Source of the DNA: Planctomycetota bacterium
GTDB lineage: Bacteria > Planctomycetota > PLA2 > JAEUHO01
DNA length: 64,000 nt
NCBI GenBank assembly: GCA_965222115.1
Contig: CBDCTJ010000007.1
Span: 2,080,001-2,144,000 of the forward strand
Direction of reading: 5' to 3'
Shown: in pieces, positions 30,064 through 45,361 of the stretch
Layout of the letters: every line of letters begins with the position of its first letter
Numbering within the stretch: position 1 is the first letter of the stretch
Program-made: the position numbers and the translations under genes
The notes under the pieces: generated by a model
What the model saw: the letters and a program-made list of their open reading frames with translations, nothing else
Told to the model about the DNA's origin: nothing
Databases searched by the model: none

Positions 30064-33000
30064 ATGAAGATTAAGCGCCTCGAGATTCACGGCTTTAAGT
30101 CCTTTGCCGACCGGCAGGTCTTTGAGTTCGACGACGGTATCTCGGCCATTGTGGGTCCCAACGGCTGCGGCAAGAGCAACGTAGTGGACGCCATCAAGTG
30201 GGTCTTGGGCGATATGAGTCCACGCAGCCTGCGTGGCAAGCGCATGGAAGACGTGATCTTCGCGGGGAGTCGCACGCGCAAGGCGCTGCCACGGGCCGAA
30301 GTCACGCTGATCCTCGATAACGAATCGGGCCTCTTGCCCACCGAACACACGGAAGTGGCTGTTACGCGTCGCCTGCACCGTTCCGGCGATAGCGAGTATC
30401 TGCTAAATCGTGCGACGTGCCGCTTGCGTGATATCCGTGAACTCTTCCTCGACACTGGGCTTGGGCAAGAAGGCAACAGCATTATGGAACAGGGTCAAAT
30501 CGACGCCCTGCTGGCTGCCAATCCCGCCGATCGACGAGGCATTTTCGAAGAGGCCGCGGGCGTGAGCCGCTACAAGCAGCGCCGCAAGGAGGCCGCTAGT
30601 CGCTTGCAGCGCACGGGCGATAATCTTGAGCGTCTGCGCGATGTTCTTGAGCTTGAAGAAAAGCGCCTGCGGTCACTCAAGAATCAGGCCGCCAAGGCGC
30701 GTCGTTTTCAAAGTCTTCGCGAAGAGCTCGCAAAGAAGCGCGTATTGCGAGCCGTTGTTCGCTACCGCGATTTGAGCGCGCAACGTGAGATTGTTGCGAA
30801 GGAGGTTCAGGCGCTTACGGATCGCGAGTCCGAGGCCGCGGGTGAACTGGCCTCTATCGAAGACGCCGCCAAGCAGACCGCCGAGAAGCGTGAAGCGGCA
30901 CAGCAAGCGGTGTTTCAACTGGAGTCGACCATTGCCGGCGCCGCCGCCGACGTTCGATCCGCCAAAGATCGCGCCGAATATGCCACGCGCGACATTGCCG
31001 ATTTGCGCGAACGCATTTCCACGCTGGAAGAGCAAGCAACCGCATCTCGCACACGGGCCGAGGCCTTGCGCACCGAGATCGCAACACTTGAGGCTGTTTC
31101 CTTGACGGCGGCAGAGCGCACGGAAGCTGAGGCCGCGCGCATGAGCGCGGTGGAGTCCGAACTCGCCGGCATCGATCGTGAAGTGAGTCGTATTCGTGAT
31201 GCGCATGACGGCGCAAAACGCGATGCGCTGAATGCACTGAGTGGGCTGGGCGAGTCGCGCAATCTCGAGACCGAGTTGCGCACGGAGCTCAAGCAGGCCG
31301 ATGCGCGTTTGGGGCGATTGTCGGAAAATCGCGCCGAGTTGCGCGTACGAGAAGAGCAGATTCAAAGCGAGATGCGGGAACTCCACACTCTCGCCGCAAG
31401 TTTGGAAGAAGACACCCGCGCACGCGCCGAGGCCCTCGAAGCCGCCGAGCACGAGCGTGCCCGGCTGGTGGCCCAGTTGGAAGCCAAGACCGAGGCGCGC
31501 AACCGCGCGGTGGAAGAACGCGCGACGAAACGTGCGCGTTTGGAAGTACTCGAACGCCTGGCCGCATCGCGCGAGGGGATGGATGCCGGTGCCAAGTTGA
31601 TCATCGATGCGGTTGCCAACCAATCCGTGGATCAGCACGGCGCGCGCGATGGCGTGTTGGGCATACTTGCCGATTTGATTGAGCCATCCCCCGAAATCGC
31701 GGCCGAACTCGATTTGCGCATCGGGCATGCCGGCGGCGCGGTCGTGGTTCGCTCGGCCGAGGACGCGCTGCGCTGGATTCGTTGGTTGCGCGAACATGGC
31801 GATGGTCAACGTGCGCGCTTTCTTTGTCTCGATCTCTTGCGTCGCGCCATTCATCCAAACGAGTCAGAGAGTTCGGATGGGTTGCAAGTGGCCGCACCTC
31901 GAGCGCTGCGAGATGTGGTTCGCTCTGTAGTTGCGAGCACGCGCGTGGTAGAGAATCTAGAAGCCGGGATTCGTTCCTTTCGCGACCACGGCGGCAACGC
32001 GGTTACGCCCCACGGCGATCGCGTTACGTCGTCCGGCGCCATTTTGGGCGGACGTGATCGACCGGCGCTCGGCCTGGTTGGACGTACCGCCGAGTTGCGC
32101 CAACTTCATGATGAAGCCGAACGTCTGACGATCTCAGTGTCGCAGGCCCAAGATGCCATGCGCACGGCGGGCGAAGCGGTGCGTGCGAGCGAAGAACAGA
32201 TTCGACGCATTCGCAAGGAACTCGTCGAAAAGAGCGAGGATCGCACGCGACGTGGCGAGGCGCTCACGCGCGTCGAACGTGAGCAAAAACAAGTCGTCGA
32301 TGCCATGAAGTTGATCGACCTCGAGGTCGATGAGTTCACATCGATGCGCACGGAAACGCTCGCACGCATTGAGACCGTGACGGCCGAAGTTCAGGCTCAC
32401 GAACGCCGTCGTGAGGCGCTGGAAGAGCGCGCCGAGGAAGCCGCGCGCGGCTACGTCGCGATGGAAGCGTCGCGCAAAGAAGCGGCGGAACGTCGCATGC
32501 AAATGATGTTGGCCCTTGCCGAGGCGAAAGCGAAGGCCGAGAGCGCCGAACGTCGCGTGACGCGTGCTCGTGACGAAGCCGCAGCACTGGATGCCCGCGC
32601 CGAAGAGGCCGCTGCAGAATCAAAGGCGCTTGGGGACCGGTTGTCGCGCGCCGAGATCACCGTTACTGAAGCGAACGCCGCGGCTGAGCAGGGCGAGGCG
32701 CTCAAATCGGGTAAAGGAACCGAGTTGCTCGAGGCCCGCAACGTGCTTGCCGCGTGTGACGAGGGGGCGACCGCGGCCGACAAGCGACGCCGCGAAGTCC
32801 AGCGTCTACACGATACGTTGCGCGAAGAACTCGCGGCATGTCGTCTGCGCGAAGGAGAATTCCGCACGCGCCTCGATGCGCTCCTCGAACAGGTCACACA
32901 AGACACCGGCGTAGATCTTGAGCGCGTGGAGGCCGAGGCGGAAGCCACTGAAGATCTCGACCTCGAAGCCATCGACGCCGAAGTGGAGACCATGCGTCGC

Positions 33001-33645
33001 AAACTCGATTCCATCGGTAACGTCAATCTCAACGCCATGGCCGAGCTCGAAGAAGTCGAAACCCATGTGCGCGAGCTTCAGACACAAGAGAAGGATCTAA
33101 TCGAAGCGCGCGTGGGGCTCGAGACGGCCATCAAAGAACTTGACGACATATCGCGCAAGCGTTTCGAGAAAACGTTCTTCGAAGTTCGTGAGAATTTCCG
33201 AACCACGTTCCGGCGGCTCTTTGGTGGTGGTCGTGCCGATGTCCTGCTGGAAGACGCCTCAGACGTTTTGGAGTCGGGCATTGAGATCGTGGCGCGCCCA
33301 CCCGGCAAGGAACAACGCACGATTAGCCTCTTGAGTGGTGGGGAGCGCACACTCACAGCCACGGCACTGTTGTTCGCCGTATTCCAGGCAAAGCCCAGCC
33401 CATTCGCCATTCTCGACGAGGTCGACGCCGCGCTCGACGAAGCCAATGTGCGTCGCTTGATTTCGTTGTTGCGCGAGTTCACCAATCGCACGCAGTTCGT
33501 GGTGATCACTCACGCTAAGTCCACGATGGAAGCTGCGGACTTGCTTTACGGCGTCACCATGGAAGAACCCGGCGTAAGTCGCCGCGTCGCCGTGCGCCTC
33601 ACCGATTGCAATAGCGCCACCCCGGAGCCTGCGGCGGCAGGTTGA
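30064..33645 (+). CDS. smc: Chromosome segregation protein SMC
   Basis: GFKSFAD, Walker A GPNGCGKSN, long coiled coils with hinge, LSGGE signature, Walker B LDEVDAALD, ITH. Confidence 0.97.
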   Translation: MKIKRLEIHGFKSFADRQVFEFDDGISAIVGPNGCGKSNVVDAIKWVLGDMSPRSLRGKRMEDVIFAGSRTRKALPRAEVTLILDNESGLLPTEHTEVAVTRRLHRSGDSEYLLNRATCRLRDIRELFLDTGLGQEGNSIMEQGQIDALLAANPADRRGIFEEAAGVSRYKQRRKEAASRLQRTGDNLERLRDVLELEEKRLRSLKNQAAKARRFQSLREELAKKRVLRAVVRYRDLSAQREIVAKEVQALTDRESEAAGELASIEDAAKQTAEKREAAQQAVFQLESTIAGAAADVRSAKDRAEYATRDIADLRERISTLEEQATASRTRAEALRTEIATLEAVSLTAAERTEAEAARMSAVESELAGIDREVSRIRDAHDGAKRDALNALSGLGESRNLETELRTELKQADARLGRLSENRAELRVREEQIQSEMRELHTLAASLEEDTRARAEALEAAEHERARLVAQLEAKTEARNRAVEERATKRARLEVLERLAASREGMDAGAKLIIDAVANQSVDQHGARDGVLGILADLIEPSPEIAAELDLRIGHAGGAVVVRSAEDALRWIRWLREHGDGQRARFLCLDLLRRAIHPNESESSDGLQVAAPRALRDVVRSVVASTRVVENLEAGIRSFRDHGGNAVTPHGDRVTSSGAILGGRDRPALGLVGRTAELRQLHDEAERLTISVSQAQDAMRTAGEAVRASEEQIRRIRKELVEKSEDRTRRGEALTRVEREQKQVVDAMKLIDLEVDEFTSMRTETLARIETVTAEVQAHERRREALEERAEEAARGYVAMEASRKEAAERRMQMMLALAEAKAKAESAERRVTRARDEAAALDARAEEAAAESKALGDRLSRAEITVTEANAAAEQGEALKSGKGTELLEARNVLAACDEGATAADKRRREVQRLHDTLREELAACRLREGEFRTRLDALLEQVTQDTGVDLERVEAEAEATEDLDLEAIDAEVETMRRKLDSIGNVNLNAMAELEEVETHVRELQTQEKDLIEARVGLETAIKELDDISRKRFEKTFFEVRENFRTTFRRLFGGGRADVLLEDASDVLESGIEIVARPPGKEQRTISLLSGGERTLTATALLFAVFQAKPSPFAILDEVDAALDEANVRRLISLLREFTNRTQFVVITHAKSTMEAADLLYGVTMEEPGVSRRVAVRLTDCNSATPEPAAAG

Positions 33646-35802: not shown

Positions 35803-36336
35803 GTGTCGAATCACTCACGTCGTCTATTCCACTACAGTGAAGATCCGAGCATCCGGCGTTTTGTGCCCCATGTCCCAAAGACGAATCCAAATCAGCTACC
35901 CGCGGTATGGGCGATAGACGAAACGCATGCGCCGCTCTATTGGTTTCCTCGCGATTGTCCACGTGGCACGGTGTGGGGGCGTGACCAACGCGAGGTCTCA
36001 CTGTTGCAGTCATTGTTTCACACCTCGTCCCACAGACTTCATGTTACCGAGTCAACCTGGCGCGATCGTATCTGGCGTTGTGAGCTGTATCGATACTCGT
36101 TTTCGGCCGAGACGTTTCTCCCCTGGCCAGATGCCTTTGGCACCTACGTATCTCATTCGACGGTTTCGCCGTTACATGTAGAGCCAATCCATGCACTGAT
36201 TCAACGCCATGAGGACGCAGGAATCGAACTTCGATTCGTCAACAACGTTTGGCCGTTTTGGGACGCAGTCGTCGCAAGCGGGCTTCCTTTTAGTGGTGTA
36301 CGACTCTCGCTCGCAAAACGTCGTGCGGCCGACTAA
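35803..36336 (+). CDS. DUF6886-like protein
   Basis: LFHYSEDPSI..FVP, VWAIDE.H..LYWFPRDCPR, LYRYSF, GIELR (family recalled from memory). Confidence 0.7.
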   Translation: MSNHSRRLFHYSEDPSIRRFVPHVPKTNPNQLPAVWAIDETHAPLYWFPRDCPRGTVWGRDQREVSLLQSLFHTSSHRLHVTESTWRDRIWRCELYRYSFSAETFLPWPDAFGTYVSHSTVSPLHVEPIHALIQRHEDAGIELRFVNNVWPFWDAVVASGLPFSGVRLSLAKRRAAD

Positions 36337-37334
36337 CAAACAAATAGAAGATTTTCCGGTTCACGCAGTCCAGCCGCGCGCGTCACGGCGCGAATGTCCT
36401 CGCGCCCTTGGCCGCCAAGCGTGGAAACGGAGAAGTGGCTCGAGTTTAGCTCTGACGGTGCAAAGGCCTTGAGTGTGTGACCGTGAATCGTGGCGCCTAC
36501 GCGGCTTTCGCGGTAGGCGTAGATGTTCGCGATATTGATGCCAGCGGTCGTAAACGCGTTGCACCACTTCTTGCCTTCTCGGCCATAGCCGATGACGTCA
36601 ATGGGACGCGTGCACGCACGCAGCATTGGAATGAGGTGCTTGAGTTTTAGATCGCGAAACTGGCGCTGGGCGTAACGTCCGTCGAGGCGCGAATGACGCG
36701 CGTCATGGTCCCGCCAATCGAGCAAGACGTCGGGGAGTTTTTGGAATCGGGCGCCATGGCCGGCGGCTCGAAGAAAGAACTCGTAGTCTTCCGGGAAAGG
36801 ACTATCGACGTAACCGCCAAGCGCATCGGCAAGCGTTCGGCGAAATGCGCATGCGGGATTGGGCATGACACACTCAATGAAGCGGCTGGCCATAATGGCG
36901 TCGTGGGTGTGGAGCCCATTGATCCACCCTTCGTAGGCTTCCATACCTTCGCTCAATCGATCCCGCGGTATGTAGCGAATGCCATGCGCAAAGTAATCAA
37001 TGTCGGGTGACGCGTCTGCGGCGTGAACCAGTGCTTCAACGCGGCTCGGATGGGCAACGTCATCGCCGTCCATCCGAATGAGCAGGTCCCCCTGCGCGCG
37101 TACGAGCAGCCGATTCGCCGTAGCGATAATGTCCTTGTGCTCCCCGGAATCGATCGATATTCGTGCATCGTGAGCCGCATACGAATTGGCAATCGCCAAC
37201 GACTCATCCGTTGATCCATCGTCTTGAATCAGCAATTCAAACTCGGGGTGGGTCTGAGCTAGGATGCTCTCAATGGCTGCCCGCAAGAAGGGCGCTTCGT
37301 TGTAGACGGGCATCATGACCGACACGCGCGTCAT
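36333..37334 (-). CDS. GT2 glycosyltransferase with C-terminal Rossmann-like domain (QTGAL/B3GNTL1-like)
   Basis: VSVMMPVYN, DDGSTD, RMDGDD, YEGWINGL, PEDYEFF, LLDWRDH, IGYGREGK; start overlaps the queG stop (ATGA). Confidence 0.9.
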   Translation of the reverse strand: MTRVSVMMPVYNEAPFLRAAIESILAQTHPEFELLIQDDGSTDESLAIANSYAAHDARISIDSGEHKDIIATANRLLVRAQGDLLIRMDGDDVAHPSRVEALVHAADASPDIDYFAHGIRYIPRDRLSEGMEAYEGWINGLHTHDAIMASRFIECVMPNPACAFRRTLADALGGYVDSPFPEDYEFFLRAAGHGARFQKLPDVLLDWRDHDARHSRLDGRYAQRQFRDLKLKHLIPMLRACTRPIDVIGYGREGKKWCNAFTTAGINIANIYAYRESRVGATIHGHTLKAFAPSELNSSHFSVSTLGGQGREDIRAVTRAAGLREPENLLFVC

Positions 37335-38470
37335 TCGTGAGTCCCCGTAGAAAGAACAGCCGCGGCTTCTTTGCGCACCCACTCATGCGAATCACCTGCG
37401 ACGAGTTCATTCGCTTTGCCATGCGCCGAGTTCGGTGCGAGATGCTCCAACGCCCACAACGCGTGCGTTCGTACGAGCGCTTCGGGATCCTTCAGGCATG
37501 CCTCCAACGCAGGCACGCAGTCCATACAGTCGATATTGCGCGCGACCACGGCGGCGTTTCTCAGGAGCCCCGCGCGTCCTGGCCGTTGGAGCGGCGTGCC
37601 CCGAAAGCGTTCGTCAAACTCGGCGTCGGTGCGCATGGAAAGCACATCCGCGAGATCGACGTGCATTCCTACACCCCGATCCGGGGCAAATTCGGGCCAC
37701 GCAGGCGGTGCATCGAACCGATTGAATGGACACACGTCTTGGCACACATCGCAACCGAAGATCCATGCGCCCATGGCGGTTCGGAGTGAACGTGGAATGG
37801 GCTCTTGGCTTTCAATCGTGAGATACGAAATGCACTTTCGGGCGTCCAATACATAGGGCTCGGGAAACGCATCGGTGGGGCAGGCCGGGATGCAGTCATT
37901 GCACGTTCCACAATGACCGTCGCTCGGCGTGTTCATCCGCTCAAGTTCGGCTTCCACAATCAGTTCGGCTAAGAAGAACCATGACCCTCGCCGCGGCAGC
38001 AGGAGGCAGGTGTTCTTACCGAAGAATCCAAGTCCGGCTCGGGCTGCAAAAGCGCGTTCTAGGATCGGCGAGTAGTCGCTAGCTACCTTTGTTCGTCCAA
38101 GATTGGCGTTATCTGCGGCGAGTGCAGTCGCAAGCTCGCGCAGGCGCGGAATGATTACGTCGTGGTAATCCAGGCCCCAGGCATAGCGCGCTACGCGACC
38201 GAAGCGCTGCTCATGCTGAAACGCCGGTGCCGGGTGCCAATACGGCACGGCAAAGCAGAGCACACTACCTGCGGTCTTGTGAATCGTCTTTGGCGTCGCG
38301 CGTTGCGGCGGGTCGCGGTCCATATAATGCATGGAGCCCGCAAAGCCGCGTTCACACCATGACTCCAGGCGCACCAACGCGTCGGAAACCGGCTTACCCG
38401 ATGTAACGCCAACCAAGTCAAAGCCGAACGACCGTGCCGTAGCCTTGATGCGGGCTTGAAGATCGTTCAC
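37331..38470 (-). CDS. queG: tRNA epoxyqueuosine reductase
   Basis: VARYAWGLDYH, PILERAFA..AGLG..GKN, GSWFFL, CGTCNDCIPACPT, CISYLTIE, FGCDVCQDVCPFN, LRNAAV. Confidence 0.97.
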   Translation of the reverse strand: MNDLQARIKATARSFGFDLVGVTSGKPVSDALVRLESWCERGFAGSMHYMDRDPPQRATPKTIHKTAGSVLCFAVPYWHPAPAFQHEQRFGRVARYAWGLDYHDVIIPRLRELATALAADNANLGRTKVASDYSPILERAFAARAGLGFFGKNTCLLLPRRGSWFFLAELIVEAELERMNTPSDGHCGTCNDCIPACPTDAFPEPYVLDARKCISYLTIESQEPIPRSLRTAMGAWIFGCDVCQDVCPFNRFDAPPAWPEFAPDRGVGMHVDLADVLSMRTDAEFDERFRGTPLQRPGRAGLLRNAAVVARNIDCMDCVPALEACLKDPEALVRTHALWALEHLAPNSAHGKANELVAGDSHEWVRKEAAAVLSTGTHE

Positions 38471-39525
38471 GCGTCTTCTCGAGCGCGAGACGAGAGCAAC
38501 ATCGCATCGCCATAGGAGTAGAAGCGGTAACGCTCACTGACCGCATGCTTATAGGCGCGCATGATTGTTTCATGTCCGGCGAATGCTGAGACGAGGGCCA
38601 AAAGCGTGGAGCGCGGCAGATGAAAGTTGGTGAATAGCGCATCTACGATATTGAATCGATACCCCGGTTGAATCAGAAGATTCGTTGATTGCTCGCCACG
38701 ATCTATCGTGCCATCGGACTTTGTAGCAGCTTCAAGTGCGCGCACCGTCGTCGTTCCCACTGCAACGATGCGACGCTTCTCCTTGCGAGCCCGTTCTAAC
38801 GCTGTAGCACACGCGTCGCTAATGGAGTAGCGCTCCGTGTGCATATCGTGATCATCCAAATCATCGGTGCGGACGGCGGCAAACGTGCCGCGCCCCACGT
38901 GCAGCGTAACGAACTGAATCTCGATGCCCTTGGCCTGTAGCGCAGCGAAGAGTTCCTGAGTGAAATGCAGACCGGCTGTGGGTGCTGCAATCGCCCCTTC
39001 TGCTTCAGCAAATGTTGTTTGATAGCGCGATTTGTCCATGGGCGCGCGCGCGTCGTTGGCCACGCGCCGTATGTAGGGCGGAAGTGGCATGGATCCGTTC
39101 ATTCTCATGAACTCAGTGAGCGACGTGGTTGCCGGCGTAACGGTCCACTCGCCGCCACCGTGAGACGCCACCAGGACAACGGTATCCTGATCATCAAACC
39201 GAAGTCGATCGCCCGTCTTTAGCCGTTTGCTGCCTCGCAACAAGACGCGCCATGCATCCTCACCCGCATCCGCATCGCGCTCCAAGAACAGGGCATCGAC
39301 GGCGCCTCCGGTCGCGCGGTGAAACGTGACTTTGGCGGGCAAGACGCGCGTGTTGTTGAGCACCAAAACGTCGGATGCATCGAGCCACGTGGGGAGTGCG
39401 CGCACCGTCGAATCGATGAACGCGTCGGAATCAACCACCAGCATGCGCCCGCCATCACGTGTCGGCGCCGGTTCTTGGGCGATGAGCTCCGGTGGCAGGT
39501 CGTAGTCAAGTTCATCGAGTCGCAT
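38467..39525 (-). CDS. queA: S-adenosylmethionine:tRNA ribosyltransferase-isomerase
   Basis: DYDLPPELIAQEP, NNTRVLPA, PLPPYIRR, YQT, AAPTAGLHF, TLHVG.GTF, VGTTTVRALE, TNFHLPRSTL, YRFYSYGDAM. Confidence 0.98.
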   Translation of the reverse strand: MRLDELDYDLPPELIAQEPAPTRDGGRMLVVDSDAFIDSTVRALPTWLDASDVLVLNNTRVLPAKVTFHRATGGAVDALFLERDADAGEDAWRVLLRGSKRLKTGDRLRFDDQDTVVLVASHGGGEWTVTPATTSLTEFMRMNGSMPLPPYIRRVANDARAPMDKSRYQTTFAEAEGAIAAPTAGLHFTQELFAALQAKGIEIQFVTLHVGRGTFAAVRTDDLDDHDMHTERYSISDACATALERARKEKRRIVAVGTTTVRALEAATKSDGTIDRGEQSTNLLIQPGYRFNIVDALFTNFHLPRSTLLALVSAFAGHETIMRAYKHAVSERYRFYSYGDAMLLSSRAREDA

Positions 39526-39605: not shown

Positions 39606-39938
39606 ATGATCATCCAGCGCGAAGTCACCAAGTACTCCATTCAGCTCTTCGGAGGCGCCGACGGAAACGCCGACGTGATTGGGGCTATCTCCCTCAGCAT
39701 TGGGGACGCAGGGGCCGTCCTGCGCTTTGTACGGCAGGAAGTCCCGGTGCCGGTCAATACCATCGTGACGCTTCCAACCGGCAAGAAGCACTACTACGTG
39801 AACTACTCTGAACGACAGCTTGCCATCGTGATCGACGTTCTGCGCAATGAGTCACCGGTTTGGTTCCTCTACAACGAGTCCACGAACGCGGGTTACCTCA
39901 CCGCTCGAGAGGAACCCACGGGCGAGGGTGAGGGCTAG
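39606..39938 (+). CDS. Hypothetical protein
   Basis: 110-aa ORF with coding-like codon use; IDVLRNESPV..., ends EEPTGEGEG. Confidence 0.7.
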   Translation: MIIQREVTKYSIQLFGGADGNADVIGAISLSIGDAGAVLRFVRQEVPVPVNTIVTLPTGKKHYYVNYSERQLAIVIDVLRNESPVWFLYNESTNAGYLTAREEPTGEGEG

Positions 39939-40091: not shown

Positions 40092-43000
40092 ATGGGCGGC
40101 AAAGGAAACGGAGGGGCCGTGGGTCGTACATTGACTTGGATCGGGATGGTGGCCGCCATAGCGCTCGCGGCATGGCTTGCGTTGTCCATCACGGATGAGC
40201 CTTCGATCTCTGTGGAAGACGACCACGGGGAAGTCGTTGAATACGATGATCAAGGCAATCCGATTCTGTCTGGGGTCGTGGGCCCCGATGGGAAGCCCAT
40301 CAAGCCAAGCAAAAGAGATTCCACGGCTACGGCGGAACCAGAAGACGCGGCACCGCTGCTCGATGGCCAACAGCTACTCACCGGCATCGTGTTGGATGAA
40401 TCGCGCCGCCCCGTAGCGGGTGCCGACATTGTTGCCCACCTGCGCGATGCAAAGGACGTTCACACGAAGAGCGACAGCGAAGGCAAGTTTTCTCTTCCCG
40501 TCACAACACCGAGCGACGTGACCAATCCCTGGTACGCACGTGGCACGGTATACGCGCGCACATCCGACGATCGCGTCGGCTTCAGCTCGTTTCGCCCATC
40601 CTTTCGTTTGCCCGCGCCGGGAATCGATGTGGGGAAGATTGTCGTACGCAAAGGTGCACACATTCGGTGTCGTGTAACACGCGAGGGATCCCCGGTCCCT
40701 GGTGCACGGTATTGGGTTGTGGGGCGACGCCGCGCTGCCATCTATGAAACGGGCGTCGCCGACGACGGTGGCATTGTTACAAGTGCAATCTTTCCGCTTT
40801 CGAGTTATGTCGTCATCGCAGCGTCGCCCGAGAAACCCGACGGGTATACAAGTGCACGCACAATGGGTCACGGTCATAAGCGCATACAGATTCCGATTGC
40901 CAAAGGCGCCGACCTCCCTGAACTCGCACTTGGCGATACGCGTACCCTTCGCGTTCAGGTCGTAGACAAGGCGTCGCGCGCACCGATTCCCGCCGCCAAG
41001 ATTCTGGTTGGCGACGATAGTTCACGCCCGCCGCCCCGTGGCGTCGGCACGTTGCCTCCCATTCCAGACACGCTGACCGGCGCGAACGGCGAGGCCGCGG
41101 TAATTGCCGGCGTACCGGCCGACAAGCGCGTGTACGTCAATGCCGAGGTAGAAGGTTATCCAAAGTCTCGTGGCTACAACGGTCGCGGCATGGCAACGGC
41201 TGAGCCCGGCAACGACGATGTCACCATCGAACTTGCCACCTATCGGGAGGTCGCCTTTCCGATCGGCCCCAGTGATGTCGAGACGCCCGGAGAGGGTGAC
41301 GCGCTAACAGCAGAACGCACGTCGTGGTCGGGCGCTCCGGACCCGGATGAACAACTCGCCGCCAAAGTTGAGGGTACGTATGTCGTGATCAGCGGCCTTC
41401 GTCCCGGCTACGACTACGGCACCGTGAGCACCGCCGATGGTCGCATTGCCAACTTTCATGCTCCTCAGGGCAACGCGAAAGCAGCGCCGCTAAAGTTCGT
41501 TCGTGCCAAACCCATCACGTTGCGGCTCATCTCTGAGAGCGGCGAAGTTATGAAGGGCGAGCAATTGAGTTTGGCGGGGGGCAACGGCCGCAGCTACCAA
41601 CCGCCGGAGATTACCAACGAAAACGGAGAAGTGACCTTTGACAAACTCACGTGGAACCAAGTCGTTGTGCGGCATGTTCCGCGAGGGTCCGACAACTGGT
41701 GGCGCGCGCCAATCGTGGACCGCTTCAAGCGCGCCGATGTAGACGGTGTTCGTGAAATCCGTCTCAAATCGGGCGAGCGCGTCACGATCGATGTGTTGAT
41801 CAATGGTGTTCGCAAGCTGCCCACACGCTATTCGATATCGGTAGGGCGGCGCAGCATTCGAAGTGGCGATGTGGAAGAAGATCCGGGTGCGGCCACGCTA
41901 TCATTTGCCGTGCTCGAAAAGGACTGGAACAAGTCCGGCCCAACGAAGTTTGTGATTGGCGCCGAGGGCTGCCTGCCCAGCACATTAGAACTGGAGCGCG
42001 AGGAGGCAAGCGCAGGCCGCCAACGTGTCGATCTAAAGCTTGCGGGCACCTTCGTGTGCCAGGTGACGCCGCCGGAAGACGAGCGGTATTCACTTGCGCT
42101 GCAGCAATACAATGACGGCACTCAAATCTGGGAGGCCACGCGCGCGTCGGGATGGCAGGCGCCGCGTCCGGCCGACGCTGAACGAGAGAAACACACGCGA
42201 CGATTTGGCGGACTCAAGGCCGGCACCTATCGCGCCATCGATAGTTTCTCCCAGGCAACCAGCGGGTCGATTGTGGTCGTACCGGGTGAGCCCGCGAAGA
42301 CAGTCAAGTTGGATCTTTCGGTGGTGACCACGATTGAAGGGCGTGTAGTGGTGCCCGAGGGCGAAAACGTGCGAACGGCTTCGGTCAAGCGCGTGACAAA
42401 GTCAGGGACGAGTTCGAGCAACACCAATTATTTTCCCGGCAGAAGTTTCCCGTCTCCCGGTCGGTGGCGCGGTGGTTCTCATATCCAGATCCAAGAGGAC
42501 GGCTCGTTCTCGCTGCGTGCCGTGCGGGGCGATCCCGTCACGCTTTCGGTGGATCACGCGTACTTATCACCCGTGAATGGAAAACGTACCTTAAGGACCA
42601 AGGGCGGCGCCCGCGGTATTGAGTTCCGACTTGAAGCCACCGGCTACATCTCCTTTCGCCTTCCCGATGTTGCCGCCGGCGCTGAGTCGGTTGCCAACAA
42701 CGGGCCAACCATGCGTCCCGGGACTTCGATTACTGCTGCGTTGCTCGCCGACGACGGGCCCGGTAAACCCAAGAAGGTCGTTCGTTCGTCGGGCCTCATT
42801 CCCAAGAACGGTGTGTATCGAATCGGAGGCGTTGAGCCGGGCACCTATGAACTTCGCATCGACTCCTCCGGGTTTGCCCGCCGAACCATTGCAGAGGTCA
42901 AACTCGGCGAATCGAGTGTAGATTTGGGCGACATTGCGATGTCGCGCGGTGGAACCATCAAGGTGCGTGTACTACCCGAAGCGGATGGAGACACACCGCC

Positions 43001-43241
43001 GTCCGCATGGATCAACTGCGTTCGAATTGATCCGCCCGACAATCACACGCGCAACGGCGTGTACGGTGCGCAAGGCGTTGCGACCGTTACGGGACTCGGA
43101 CCTGGCACGTGGAAGCTGAGCATCTGGATTCACAACATGTTTGTGCCCGGCGGGAGCCAGAAGCCCGCTCATGTTCGCGAAGTGTCCATTTCCGGTAACG
43201 AGGAAGTCGACATTGAACACCGGATGTCGTCGGGGTCGTGA
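40092..43241 (+). CDS. Membrane-anchored multi-repeat carboxypeptidase-regulatory-like protein
   Basis: N-terminal TM; repeats G.VLDE..RPVAGA, GSPVPGA, VVDKASRAPIPAA, GLKAGTY, VEPGTY, GLGPGTW. Confidence 0.85.
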   Translation: MGGKGNGGAVGRTLTWIGMVAAIALAAWLALSITDEPSISVEDDHGEVVEYDDQGNPILSGVVGPDGKPIKPSKRDSTATAEPEDAAPLLDGQQLLTGIVLDESRRPVAGADIVAHLRDAKDVHTKSDSEGKFSLPVTTPSDVTNPWYARGTVYARTSDDRVGFSSFRPSFRLPAPGIDVGKIVVRKGAHIRCRVTREGSPVPGARYWVVGRRRAAIYETGVADDGGIVTSAIFPLSSYVVIAASPEKPDGYTSARTMGHGHKRIQIPIAKGADLPELALGDTRTLRVQVVDKASRAPIPAAKILVGDDSSRPPPRGVGTLPPIPDTLTGANGEAAVIAGVPADKRVYVNAEVEGYPKSRGYNGRGMATAEPGNDDVTIELATYREVAFPIGPSDVETPGEGDALTAERTSWSGAPDPDEQLAAKVEGTYVVISGLRPGYDYGTVSTADGRIANFHAPQGNAKAAPLKFVRAKPITLRLISESGEVMKGEQLSLAGGNGRSYQPPEITNENGEVTFDKLTWNQVVVRHVPRGSDNWWRAPIVDRFKRADVDGVREIRLKSGERVTIDVLINGVRKLPTRYSISVGRRSIRSGDVEEDPGAATLSFAVLEKDWNKSGPTKFVIGAEGCLPSTLELEREEASAGRQRVDLKLAGTFVCQVTPPEDERYSLALQQYNDGTQIWEATRASGWQAPRPADAEREKHTRRFGGLKAGTYRAIDSFSQATSGSIVVVPGEPAKTVKLDLSVVTTIEGRVVVPEGENVRTASVKRVTKSGTSSSNTNYFPGRSFPSPGRWRGGSHIQIQEDGSFSLRAVRGDPVTLSVDHAYLSPVNGKRTLRTKGGARGIEFRLEATGYISFRLPDVAAGAESVANNGPTMRPGTSITAALLADDGPGKPKKVVRSSGLIPKNGVYRIGGVEPGTYELRIDSSGFARRTIAEVKLGESSVDLGDIAMSRGGTIKVRVLPEADGDTPPSAWINCVRIDPPDNHTRNGVYGAQGVATVTGLGPGTWKLSIWIHNMFVPGGSQKPAHVREVSISGNEEVDIEHRMSSGS

Positions 43242-45361
43242 GCGCAAGCGCTAGATTCGCCGCCTTGACGATCGGCGCACTCTTTGCATTCGTTCACGTT
43301 GGGTTCAGTCCGTATGCCCGTGGGGATGTGCTCATTCCGAAGAGGGGCAAGCGCATCGAAGGCGCGATCGTCTCGCAAGCGGGCGGTCGCGTTGTCTTCA
43401 ATCGGTACTGGTCACGCAATCCGGGCGTGACGAATCCCGATCATGTGATCACCCTCGCAGCGTCGGCCATCAAGTCGGCCAGGGTGGCGCCCCATCCCCA
43501 CGTGGAGTTCTTTCGCCGGTTGAAAGTGGCCAAATCGGTCGACGACTTGGTTGCACTCGGTGATTATGCGCGCGAACACAAATTGAAAGCTCACGCGAAG
43601 CGCGCTTATGCCACGGCACTTGCCAAGGATGAGTCCAACGCCGCGGCGCTGGAGGGCATCGGCGGCGCGTCCAAATGGAAAACGGAGCGGGAGGGCAATC
43701 CGTGGCTCGACCACTCGCTTGGCGATCTTCGTAGGAAATACGTCACCGTCAGCGACCCCAAAGAACGCGTCGCGCTGGCGGCAACAATCAAAAAGGCCGG
43801 CGGCCAAGAAAAGCTCCCCACGTTAGAGCGCATGCGACGCAGTGCATCGCAGCCCACGGGCTATCACGTCGATCGTCCGCTGTGCGTGAATGCGCCCGAT
43901 CATCCCCATGGCGTGTACACGCTCTATGTGCCCGATACCTACACACCCACCGAAACCTGGCCGCTCATCATTGGCCTTCACGGAGGGGGCGCGGGTGGGA
44001 AGGCGGGCGACGAAGTGGTAGGAAGCGGCGAGTCGGCGATAAACTTCTATCGACGGCACGCAACCGAGCGTGGATTCATTGTGGCATGTCCAGATGCATT
44101 GTCGCGCGGATGGGGAAGCAAGGACAATGAGCAACTTGTTCGGGATGTCATCACGGAATTGACGCTGCTCTACAACGTTGATCTAGACCGCATCTATTTG
44201 ACGGGGCACTCGATGGGGGGCTTTGGCACATGGTCGTTGGGTCCACGCATGGCCGACCTATTCGCGGCGATTTCGCCCATGGCGGGCGCCGGATCGGGGG
44301 TGTCCAAACTCATCGACACCAACACGCCTATTTTCATCTTTCACTCGGCAGACGATTTCATTGATGTAAGCAGCGACCGCGCGGCGGCCAAGCAACTAAA
44401 AGCGTCGTCGCTGGACTTTGTGTATACGGAGTTTCCAAACGCCGGTCACGGATTCCCCGACTCCGTTCAAGTGGAGTTGTTCGACTTTTTCGAACCGCGT
44501 CGCCTCTATCGCAAGCGGCGCAAGAGCGCATGGCCTCGCTCGTCGTTCTTGGGCAAAGTCACCTCAACCGAGTCGCGCTTTCTTGGCGACCCGTTGGCGG
44601 AAACAAAAGCGGATGCGCCCACGCTGAAGTCATTGATGAAGACGTTCTTGCTCGGCGGTGGGTGTTCGGAAGCGGTGGCACACGTGCTACTCGATCGTGC
44701 GTTTGAGGGTACCGGGGCAGCGGTGTCCACGGTGTTGCATGGGAAGAACAACTCCACGTCGGCGCGCGCCAGTGCAGCTCGGTTACTTGGCAAACTTGAG
44801 GAGCCCGGAATCGGGCTACCCACGCTCCGCCGGGTCTTGAAGGAGAAACCCTCACGCGATCTCTCCCACGTCATTCGTGCTACCGCAAAGTCGGTTGCAC
44901 GATTGGAACAGCTACTTCGTGAGAAGGACAGTGACGACGTGGGGCGCGAGCACTCCATGTTGTCGCTCGAGCTCGCCATCGACTATTGGTGCATGTTTTA
45001 CGAATCAAAACTCTCGGGAGCTACGATTGATGCGCCCGACTGGCAGCGCGTCATTCCCGTCATTGCCGACCTTGTTTCGGCGTGGGCTGCGTGTGCACGA
45101 GAAGGCGATTCGCTCAAGATGATCAAGCGCACGGCCTATGAACTGGTGCTTGAGCCCACGCACAAGGTGGCCACGTCTCCGCGGGTGCGCGAGGATCCAT
45201 CGATTGAACGGGCGCAGTTGGCAGCTGCCATGGGGCGGGCCTATGCCCGCGGGGGCGCCACGGACGACGATTGGGCGGATCTCTTCAAGGCTCTTTCCTC
45301 GGACGAGCGGGCCCTAACGGCGGCCAAAGCTGCCCGCGAGCAGGCGCCCTCAGCCCGCTAG
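43238..45361 (+). CDS. Exported alpha/beta hydrolase (esterase-like) with helical flanking domains
   Basis: [39 protein letters not shown]; HEAT-like C-terminus; 4-bp overlap with upstream gene. Confidence 0.85.

Follow-up and report, generated by a model that had tools for sequence, protein, structure and literature searches.

A candidate queuosine-tRNA glycosyltransferase of the QTGAL/B3GNTL1 family encoded behind queA and queG in a planctomycete

In bacteria, the tRNA nucleoside queuosine (Q) is modified to glutamyl-Q, to our knowledge the one accepted bacterial decoration of Q, and we know of only one established bacterial enzyme, the glutamyl-queuosine tRNA-Asp synthetase GluQRS (YadB), that decorates the cyclopentenediol of Q at position 34 (Q34). 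Glycosylated queuosines have been described as a peculiarity of animals, and the enzymes that write them, QTGAL and QTMAN, were reportedly named in this role only in 2023, in a primary paper said to be that of Zhao et al. in Cell. Here, we analysed a stretch of 64,000 nucleotides (the window) from a Planctomycetota bacterium (GenBank assembly GCA_965222115.1, contig CBDCTJ010000007.1, positions 2,080,001 to 2,144,000 of the forward strand), in which a glycosyltransferase gene of the GT2 type follows queA and queG and encodes a protein resembling QTGAL, and we suggest that this protein may add a sugar to Q34 of tRNA. This would extend a known enzyme family to a further domain of life and to a new pathway context.

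According to passages of PMC11755703 and PMC12313893, mammalian QTGAL (formerly B3GNTL1) forms galactosyl-Q at position 34 of tRNA-Tyr, in agreement with what an earlier note on this DNA had said of Q galactosylation in vertebrates, whereas QTMAN (GTDC1), a distinct enzyme with its own sugar and tRNA, likewise glycosylates Q34 in mammals and forms mannosyl-Q on tRNA-Asp. QTGAL orthologues are patchy among insects, as stated in a passage of PMC11705514, and a passage of PMC10690763 places sugar-modified Q in vertebrates and then mentions glutamyl-Q. Glycosylated Q-tRNAs can be separated on acid-denaturing and APB gels (PMC7430669). QTGAL and the window protein belong to the same length class, combine a GT-A domain carrying the same DxD motif with a basic Rossmann-like C-terminal domain, and share the motifs YxxWxN, ED followed by a hydrophobic residue, [WY]R, GxGxxG[KR] and, at the C-terminus, L-x-E-G/x-x-D. 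Unlike QTGAL, the window protein falls into a separate bacterial group that is not nested among the eukaryotic proteins (about 21-28% identity), and its gene stands in an operon with genes of de novo Q synthesis, whereas animals salvage queuine. Bacterial tRNA-Tyr has a long variable arm, so that its recognition would have to differ from that by QTGAL. GluQRS occupies the same position in the pathway, decorating the Q34 cyclopentenediol after Q has been formed, but it has an unrelated fold of the aminoacyl-tRNA-synthetase type and transfers ATP-activated glutamate. Generic GT-A/GT2 enzymes (SpsA, WrtF, heparosan and chondroitin synthases, TarS/TarP) have the N-terminal GT-A fold and the DxD motif in common with the window protein, but they match in the catalytic domain only and are without YxxWxN, [WY]R and the C-terminal Rossmann-like domain.

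Homology to QTGAL and domain organisation

On sequence grounds, the window protein belongs to the QTGAL/B3GNTL1 family, although it lies outside the animal subfamily. We compared a profile of 32 aligned bacterial relatives (A1) with an alignment of 19 eukaryotic homologues (A2), the latter including B3GNTL1 of the catfish Silurus (P0562), and obtained an hhalign probability of 100 and an E-value of 2.7e-62 over 322 columns (6-340 of 341 against 13-356 of 357), with a profile identity of 21%. Because this alignment reaches the last residues, the homology takes in the C-terminal domain that generic GT2 proteins are without. The bacterial profile also matched pig B3GNTL1 (P0421; probability 99.8, E 3.3e-29, 257 columns), and in BLASTP the window protein alone was 26% identical to the pig protein over 222 amino acids (aa) (E 2e-14) and 28% identical to the catfish protein over 232 aa (E 2e-15). 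When pig P0421 was searched against the genome from which the window comes, it picked the window protein from among 13 GT2 candidates, with 40.9 bits (E 1.7e-10) as against 15.6 bits (E 0.0125) for the second best. The forward direction of this mutual best match comes from language-model features and not from an alignment search: the nearest named cluster was a eukaryotic 'putative UDP-GlcNAc:betaGal beta-1,3-N-acetylglucosaminyltransferase-l...' (score 0.98, 197 of 256 features), in a search that left out clusters of PF13641, PF10111, PF13632 and PF13506, the families of bacterial look-alikes. The third rank in the same search was held by 50 proteins of tailed phages (Uroviricota) of about 418 aa with a PF00535 domain (score 0.94).

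A protein search in the length range of 409-1304 aa returned mostly generic GT2 proteins together with P0286, which served as a bridge to the eukaryotic homologues: its C-terminal 390 residues match columns 6-294 of the bacterial profile (hhalign probability 99.9, E 2e-32), and a search with it against 1.84 billion representative proteins gave many matches of 340-440 aa. Among the eukaryotic homologues are proteins of Aphanomyces (P0398) and of the choanoflagellates Didymoeca (P0405) and Salpingoeca (P0425). The pig and catfish proteins bear the name B3GNTL1, 'UDP-GlcNAc:betaGal beta-1,3-N-acetylglucosaminyltransferase-like protein 1', in their sources (UniRef/NCBI), and a rabbit protein (P0555, in the cluster of P0480) and a pipefish protein (P0510) have the source name 'queuosine-tRNA galactosyltransferase'. 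P0286 itself (938 aa, ENA) is probably eukaryotic and has a 540-residue N-terminal region with a precomputed Myb-type domain (PF00249) before its QTGAL-like part, an arrangement that may reflect a fusion or two gene models merged into one.

A FastTree phylogeny of 122 rows places the 105 bacterial and the 17 eukaryotic rows on opposite sides of one branch with a support of 100, the window protein thus standing outside the animal clade; since the tree was rooted at its midpoint with no outgroup, it does not give the direction of descent between the two groups. When 104 bacterial and 17 eukaryotic rows are aligned together, both groups have the same residue at 80% or more at 29 positions, of which 15 lie outside the GT2 core, namely Y134, W137, N139, P160, G173, E182, D183, G194, L204, R208, G251, G254, E325, L261 (F in the window protein) and V306 (L in the window protein). 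The likeness to B3GNTL1 beyond generic GT2 motifs and at similar length, which had been claimed in the earlier note, is thus borne out by an end-to-end profile match within the same length class. The five B3GNTL1 motifs that had been quoted in its support all align with the corresponding motifs of the window protein in the profile alignments, but only three of them are exact in a named B3GNTL1: ERYTRWINQL, PEDLLFF and LLLYRHH occur unchanged in P0488, which NCBI names B3GNTL1 isoform X6. The fourth, IWNAGKQGRR, is exact in P0469 and the members of its cluster, which are without a source name, but the named pig and catfish B3GNTL1 proteins depart from it at a single position, and the fifth, LQEGQDFLHF, has close variants in unnamed relatives but no exact occurrence. 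The mammalian B3GNTL1 isoforms that we retrieved have aberrant C-termini.

The AlphaFold2 model of the window protein has a predicted local distance difference test (pLDDT) score of 95.1 and a predicted template-modelling (pTM) score of 0.92. Foldseek comparison of this model with the PDB returned generic GT-A enzymes (SpsA, WrtF, heparosan and chondroitin synthases, RmlT and TarS; E about 1e-14, query-normalised TM 0.5-0.57), and generic GT2 models and structures cover only the N-terminal 100-205 residues; sequence, profile and Foldseek searches of the PDB matched no chain named QTGAL or B3GNTL1. The last 90 or so residues gave weak profile matches to Rossmann-like domains (the PglD/VioB-type N-terminal domain of the VioB/PerB acetyltransferases, Rex, KtrA), with E-values of 3e-5 to 3e-3. 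There is no hydrophobic segment in the protein (maximum KD19 1.02). Across the bacterial profile, the residues D43, D89, D91, D92, R98, W137, N139, E182, D183, Y184 and G251 are invariant, and the conserved blocks read YExWxN, PEDY, LLDWR and GAGxxGK. The charge asymmetry between the two parts of the protein (Table 1) is a property of the family, the N domain having a median isoelectric point (pI) of 5.3 and the C-terminal part one of 10.2 in the 104 bacterial and 9.5 in the 17 eukaryotic rows; the pattern of an acidic N domain and a basic C-terminal part is seen in 103 of these bacterial rows and in all of the eukaryotic ones.

The queA-queG-GT2 unit and its neighbourhoods

The three genes lie co-directionally on the minus strand in the order queA, queG, GT2 and are joined by two 4-bp overlaps (Table 1), just as the earlier note had described; a further 11 genomes from this planctomycete family show the same order. 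The ATG at 37334 was taken as the start of the GT2 gene in preference to an upstream GTG at 37382, as it fits the N-termini of 31 relatives better. Upstream of queA, the neighbouring gene (39606-39938) runs divergently on the plus strand, and downstream a plus-strand gene for a DUF6886 protein (35803-36336; PF21820, E 8.4e-55) is convergent with the GT2 gene, so that the operon is limited to exactly three genes with GT2 as the last. A consensus scan found no promoter-like or terminator-like site that would split the three minus-strand genes, although such scans are no evidence of function. Judging from the overlaps, the GT2 gene is translationally coupled to queA and queG. The end of the DUF6886 gene overlaps the GT2 stop codon by 4 bases (36333-36336).

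Table 1. Genes, overlaps and protein parts of the three-gene unit (window coordinates)
Feature	Coordinates	Strand	Details
queA, tRNA preQ1(34) S-adenosylmethionine ribosyltransferase-isomerase	38467..39525	-	First gene, 352 aa; NF001140 416.6 bits (cut-off 324), TIGR00113 358.5 bits, PF02547 E 7.5e-120
queG, epoxyqueuosine reductase	37331..38470	-	Second gene, 379 aa, GTG start; TIGR00276 329.7 bits (cut-off 200), PF08331 QueG_DUF1730 and Fer4_16
QTGAL/B3GNTL1-like GT2 gene	36333..37334	-	Third and last gene, 333 aa plus stop; PF00535 Glycos_transf_2 E 4e-27
GTGA overlap, queA stop/queG start	38467..38470	-	GCG-TGA/GTG-AAC in the sequence
ATGA overlap, queG stop/GT2 start	37331..37334	-	GAA-TGA/ATG-ACG in the sequence
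Acidic GT-A catalytic domain, residues 1-205	36720..37334	-	pI 4.8; family motifs Y134-x2-W137-x-N139 and E182-D183-Y184
D89-G-D91-D92, DxD-type metal/nucleotide-sugar motif	37059..37070	-	Invariant in the bacterial and eukaryotic groups
Basic part, residues 206-333	36336..36719	-	pI 9.8; W207-R208, long helix, Rossmann-like domain with G249-x-G251-x2-G254-K; proposed tRNA-binding part

Among the 40 genomes of the window's class, 26 have a GT2 match, one of which (G001) is partial and was set aside. The arrangement queA-queG-GT2 is present in 12 of them (the window's genome and the 11 others), all belonging to one family, f1, of whose 16 carriers they make up three quarters; as it recurs in this way, the arrangement is not a one-off. 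The GT2 proteins are only 40-46% identical, though the gene order has been kept, and in the que-linked genomes queG and the GT2 gene either overlap or lie a few tens of bases apart, as far as tblastn end-points, which are not exact start codons, can tell. In the phylogeny, 13 que-linked rows (two of them with an identical protein) fall within a single clade of 17, in which the other four, unlinked, rows are nested. This que-linked clade splits from all 88 other bacterial rows, and the GT2 genes of the two families of the same order (L081-L096 and L097-L105) do not group together; the two families may therefore have acquired or kept different copies of the GT2 gene.

A scan of GTDB in which each species was represented by one genome gave a relative in at least 562 species, and we inspected the surroundings of the best 80 of these loci. 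QueA and QueG stand beside the GT2 gene in only one of the 80, L001, whose protein is that of L083 in genome G018 of the linked family; setting L001 aside left 79 loci of other species. The 113 immediate neighbours at these 79 loci comprise 141 Pfam families, none of which occurs more than four times, and they include no glycan-cluster genes, no que genes and no recurrent partner; the t6A enzyme TsaC/Sua5 and methionine aminopeptidase were each met twice. No Tgt was found near any locus examined, and the genes upstream of GT2 in the unlinked relatives of the window's class matched no Pfam family. Members of the family thus stand as 'lone' cytoplasmic GT2 genes among housekeeping genes, and the only operonic partner seen is queA-queG in one planctomycete family. 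Some neighbours do recur in clusters (ABC ATPases, gyrA in Gemmatimonadota, kinases, type II secretion), but these were put down to synteny within phyla and are uninformative on function.

In genome G018, the GT2 gene is followed, at a distance of about 375-530 bp downstream, by genes for tRNA-Tyr(GTA) and tRNA-Gly(GCC) (L083:961-1120, equivalent to L001:3131-3290). tRNA-Tyr is the substrate of animal QTGAL; as a tRNA-Tyr gene lies near GT2 in only one of the 12 linked genomes, the proximity may be due to chance.

Proposed role and alternatives

Given the homology to QTGAL and the coupling to queA and queG, we lean towards the view that the GT2 protein is a soluble enzyme of the cytoplasm that glycosylates Q34 of tRNA. 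The gene order, the overlaps, the family membership, the domain architecture, the shared motifs and the charge asymmetry are seen directly, whereas we infer that Q34 in tRNA is the acceptor, that the C-terminal part binds RNA and that the reactions follow the order given below. Tgt, which is encoded elsewhere in the genome, would put preQ1 into tRNA, QueA would form epoxyqueuosine and QueG would reduce it to queuosine, after which the co-translated GT2 protein would take a hexose from a nucleotide sugar and attach it to one of the hydroxyls of the Q34 cyclopentenediol. The GT-A domain would catalyse this step through its DxD motif (D89/D91/D92) with a divalent metal and the nucleotide sugar, while the basic C-terminal helix and the Rossmann-like domain might hold the anticodon arm, the acceptor being Q34 of one or more tRNAs with a GUN anticodon. 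A tgt gene is indeed present in the window's genome, outside the operon, and no match to GluQRS in that genome exceeds the cut-off (203.7 against 276.7 bits).

With somewhat less confidence, we suggest that the bacterial family as a whole may be what corresponds to QTGAL in prokaryotes, and perhaps what QTGAL descended from, in which case many bacteria (among them Planctomycetota, Gemmatimonadota, Myxococcota, Acidobacteriota, Nitrospirota and Chloroflexota) would carry an as yet undetected glycosylated Q in their tRNA, a new modification produced by a translationally coupled QueA-QueG-glycosyltransferase line. If Q34 glycosylation is true of these bacteria, sugar-decorated queuosine would extend the bacterial repertoire of tRNA modifications, the bacterial enzymes would offer a tractable model for the structure of QTGAL and its recognition of tRNA, and the finding would bear on the origin of the eukaryotic enzyme. 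If, on the other hand, bacteria do not glycosylate Q34 with this GT2 protein, the fold of QTGAL serves a different cytoplasmic substrate in them.

A number of observations weigh against Q34 as the acceptor. The linkage of homologues to que genes, which the earlier note had put forward as a check, holds for the 12 genomes of the one family f1 but is absent from the other carriers examined and has a single origin: four f1 carriers (G016, G019, G021 and G025) have no QueA or QueG match within 1.5-kb flanks, queA being on another contig in each, none of nine carriers of the sister family f2 is que-linked, QueA, QueG and Tgt are all missing from the surroundings (up to 8 kb) of the 79 loci of other species, and, since the unlinked rows are nested in the linked clade, the tree implies one gain and one loss of the linkage. 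Co-occurrence of the GT2 gene with Q synthesis weighs neither for nor against this reading. Of 23 carriers tested, 22 have a tgt gene. Apart from the window's genome, the carriers tested include 10 from diverse phyla, of which nine have tgt; the exception, G045, has queA, so that its tgt is probably unassembled. In 251 Chloroflexota genomes (a tally that includes four unpublished genomes, G087, G194, G222 and G276, none of them a carrier), tgt accompanies 12 of 13 carriers and 202 of 238 non-carriers and hence does not discriminate between them, and within the window's class queA is present in all 40 genomes, with a GT2 match in only 26. No counter-example turned up among the 23 carriers, but a comparison of this kind can show little where almost all members of the groups sampled make Q.

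The remaining points against this reading concern the protein itself and the literature. The branch joining the bacterial and eukaryotic groups is long (0.62 + 0.71), and at a profile identity of only 21% the acceptor could differ. In addition, the window protein is a divergent member of its family, with an end branch of 0.9 on the tree, and it departs from the consensus at several positions (G68D, A72T, Q102L, P156V, L261F and V306L, with VIGYG in place of WGAG). Full-text literature searches, which took in a 2026 preprint on Q glycosylation, revealed no bacterial homologue of QTGAL, no que linkage of one and no glycosylated Q in bacteria, although Zhao et al. 2023 (Cell) may mention bacterial homologues.

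These points lend themselves to an alternative in which the kinship with QTGAL is genuine but the bacterial enzymes have another cytoplasmic acceptor, be it a nucleic acid, a nucleotide-like compound or a small molecule, only eukaryotes having recruited the fold for Q, and in which the adjacency to queA and queG is inherited synteny that means nothing for function. A que linkage that amounts to one evolutionary event and is missing from every other carrier examined, the separation of the two groups at about 21-28% identity and a co-occurrence with tgt that equals the background would all be expected in that case, and fusions of family members with a generic class-I methyltransferase domain hint at varied chemistry. 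However, the motifs outside the GT2 core, which are likely to be acceptor-side residues, are the same in both groups, as is the possession of a basic C-terminal part; the overlap-coupled operon has been kept across proteins that are only 40-46% identical, and no alternative conserved partner emerged among the 113 neighbours. We consider a different bacterial acceptor unlikely, if far from negligible.

A second alternative keeps the link to Q but not to tRNA, in that the GT2 protein would act on free queuine, the queuosine nucleoside or a precursor, as a means to store, export or mask this micronutrient, rather than on tRNA-bound Q. The operon would be compatible with this, as it ties the GT2 protein to Q chemistry without saying that the substrate is tRNA-bound, and the Rossmann-like C-terminal domain resembles domains that bind small nucleotides (PglD/VioB N-terminal, Rex). 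Yet QueA and QueG act on tRNA-bound intermediates, so that the operon yields tRNA-bound Q, and the C-terminal part has a pI above 8.5 in 97 of the 104 bacterial rows, which would suit a polyanionic partner. The eukaryotic relative, moreover, acts on tRNA, according to passages of PMC11755703 and PMC12313893, and we regard a free substrate as improbable.

Least probable of all, and disfavoured here, is an ordinary envelope or exopolysaccharide GT2 that stands behind queG by chance: Pfam and NCBIfam do give generic GT2 matches only, and sources call the relatives 'glycosyltransferase involved in cell wall biosynthesis', but the best model, EpsE, scores no more than 79.8 bits where its cut-off asks for 450 and is limited to residues 3-126, all 23 NCBIfam matches (EpsE, WcaA, TuaG and PgaC types were tested) miss their cut-offs by a wide margin and are confined to the N-terminal 100-200 residues, so that the protein does not group with envelope enzymes as it might have done, a membrane segment is missing, no glycan-cluster genes adjoin the gene in the window (where its neighbours are queG and the DUF6886 gene) or at the 79 other loci, and the homology to QTGAL runs end to end and includes a domain that envelope GT2 proteins are without.

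Distribution of the family and other features of the window

A first search for relatives of the window protein returned 225 proteins, only bacterial and most of them spanning 97-100% of the query, with a family size of about 330-345 aa; when the search was shifted to greater length, the members found (349-400 aa) were again bacterial. Records named as carriers include Anaeromyxobacter soli SG29 (L023) and, on a metagenome-assembled genome, Thiohalomonas denitrificans (L076). Between them, the best 80 of the species with a relative (at least 562) bear 19 phylum labels, of which all but one are bacterial (18): Planctomycetota, Gemmatimonadota, Myxococcota, Acidobacteriota, Nitrospirota, Bacteroidota, Chloroflexota, Armatimonadota, Thermodesulfobacteriota, Pseudomonadota, Verrucomicrobiota, Lentisphaerota and Bacillota, as well as the five candidate phyla Hydrogenedentota, Latescibacterota, Rokuibacteriota, Binatota and Margulisiibacteriota. 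One locus (L046, contig CAXQPB010000187.1) is labelled as the archaeon Nitrosopumilus, but this 16.9-kb stretch has 66% G+C and its family member is of the bacterial type and groups with Gammaproteobacteria, so that the contig looks mis-binned. Among the 251 Chloroflexota genomes, the matches are bimodal, with 13 full-length matches at E-values of 1e-113 or lower and the next one at 1e-54 over the GT-A part only.

Two natural fusions, P0136 (631 aa) and P0162 (624 aa), consist of an N-terminal class-I S-adenosylmethionine methyltransferase domain (about 290 aa) with a complete protein of the GT2 family behind it; the methyltransferase part is a generic domain that matched no specific family.

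Elsewhere in the window, a plus-strand open reading frame (ORF) of 1193 aa (30064-33645) has an N-terminus that by eye resembles an SMC chromosome-condensation ATPase (Walker A GPNGCGKSN). Upstream of the operon and on the strand opposite to it, two long plus-strand ORFs of 1049 aa (40092-43241) and 707 aa (43238-45361) overlap by 4 bp, and the former has a hydrophobic stretch at its N-terminus.

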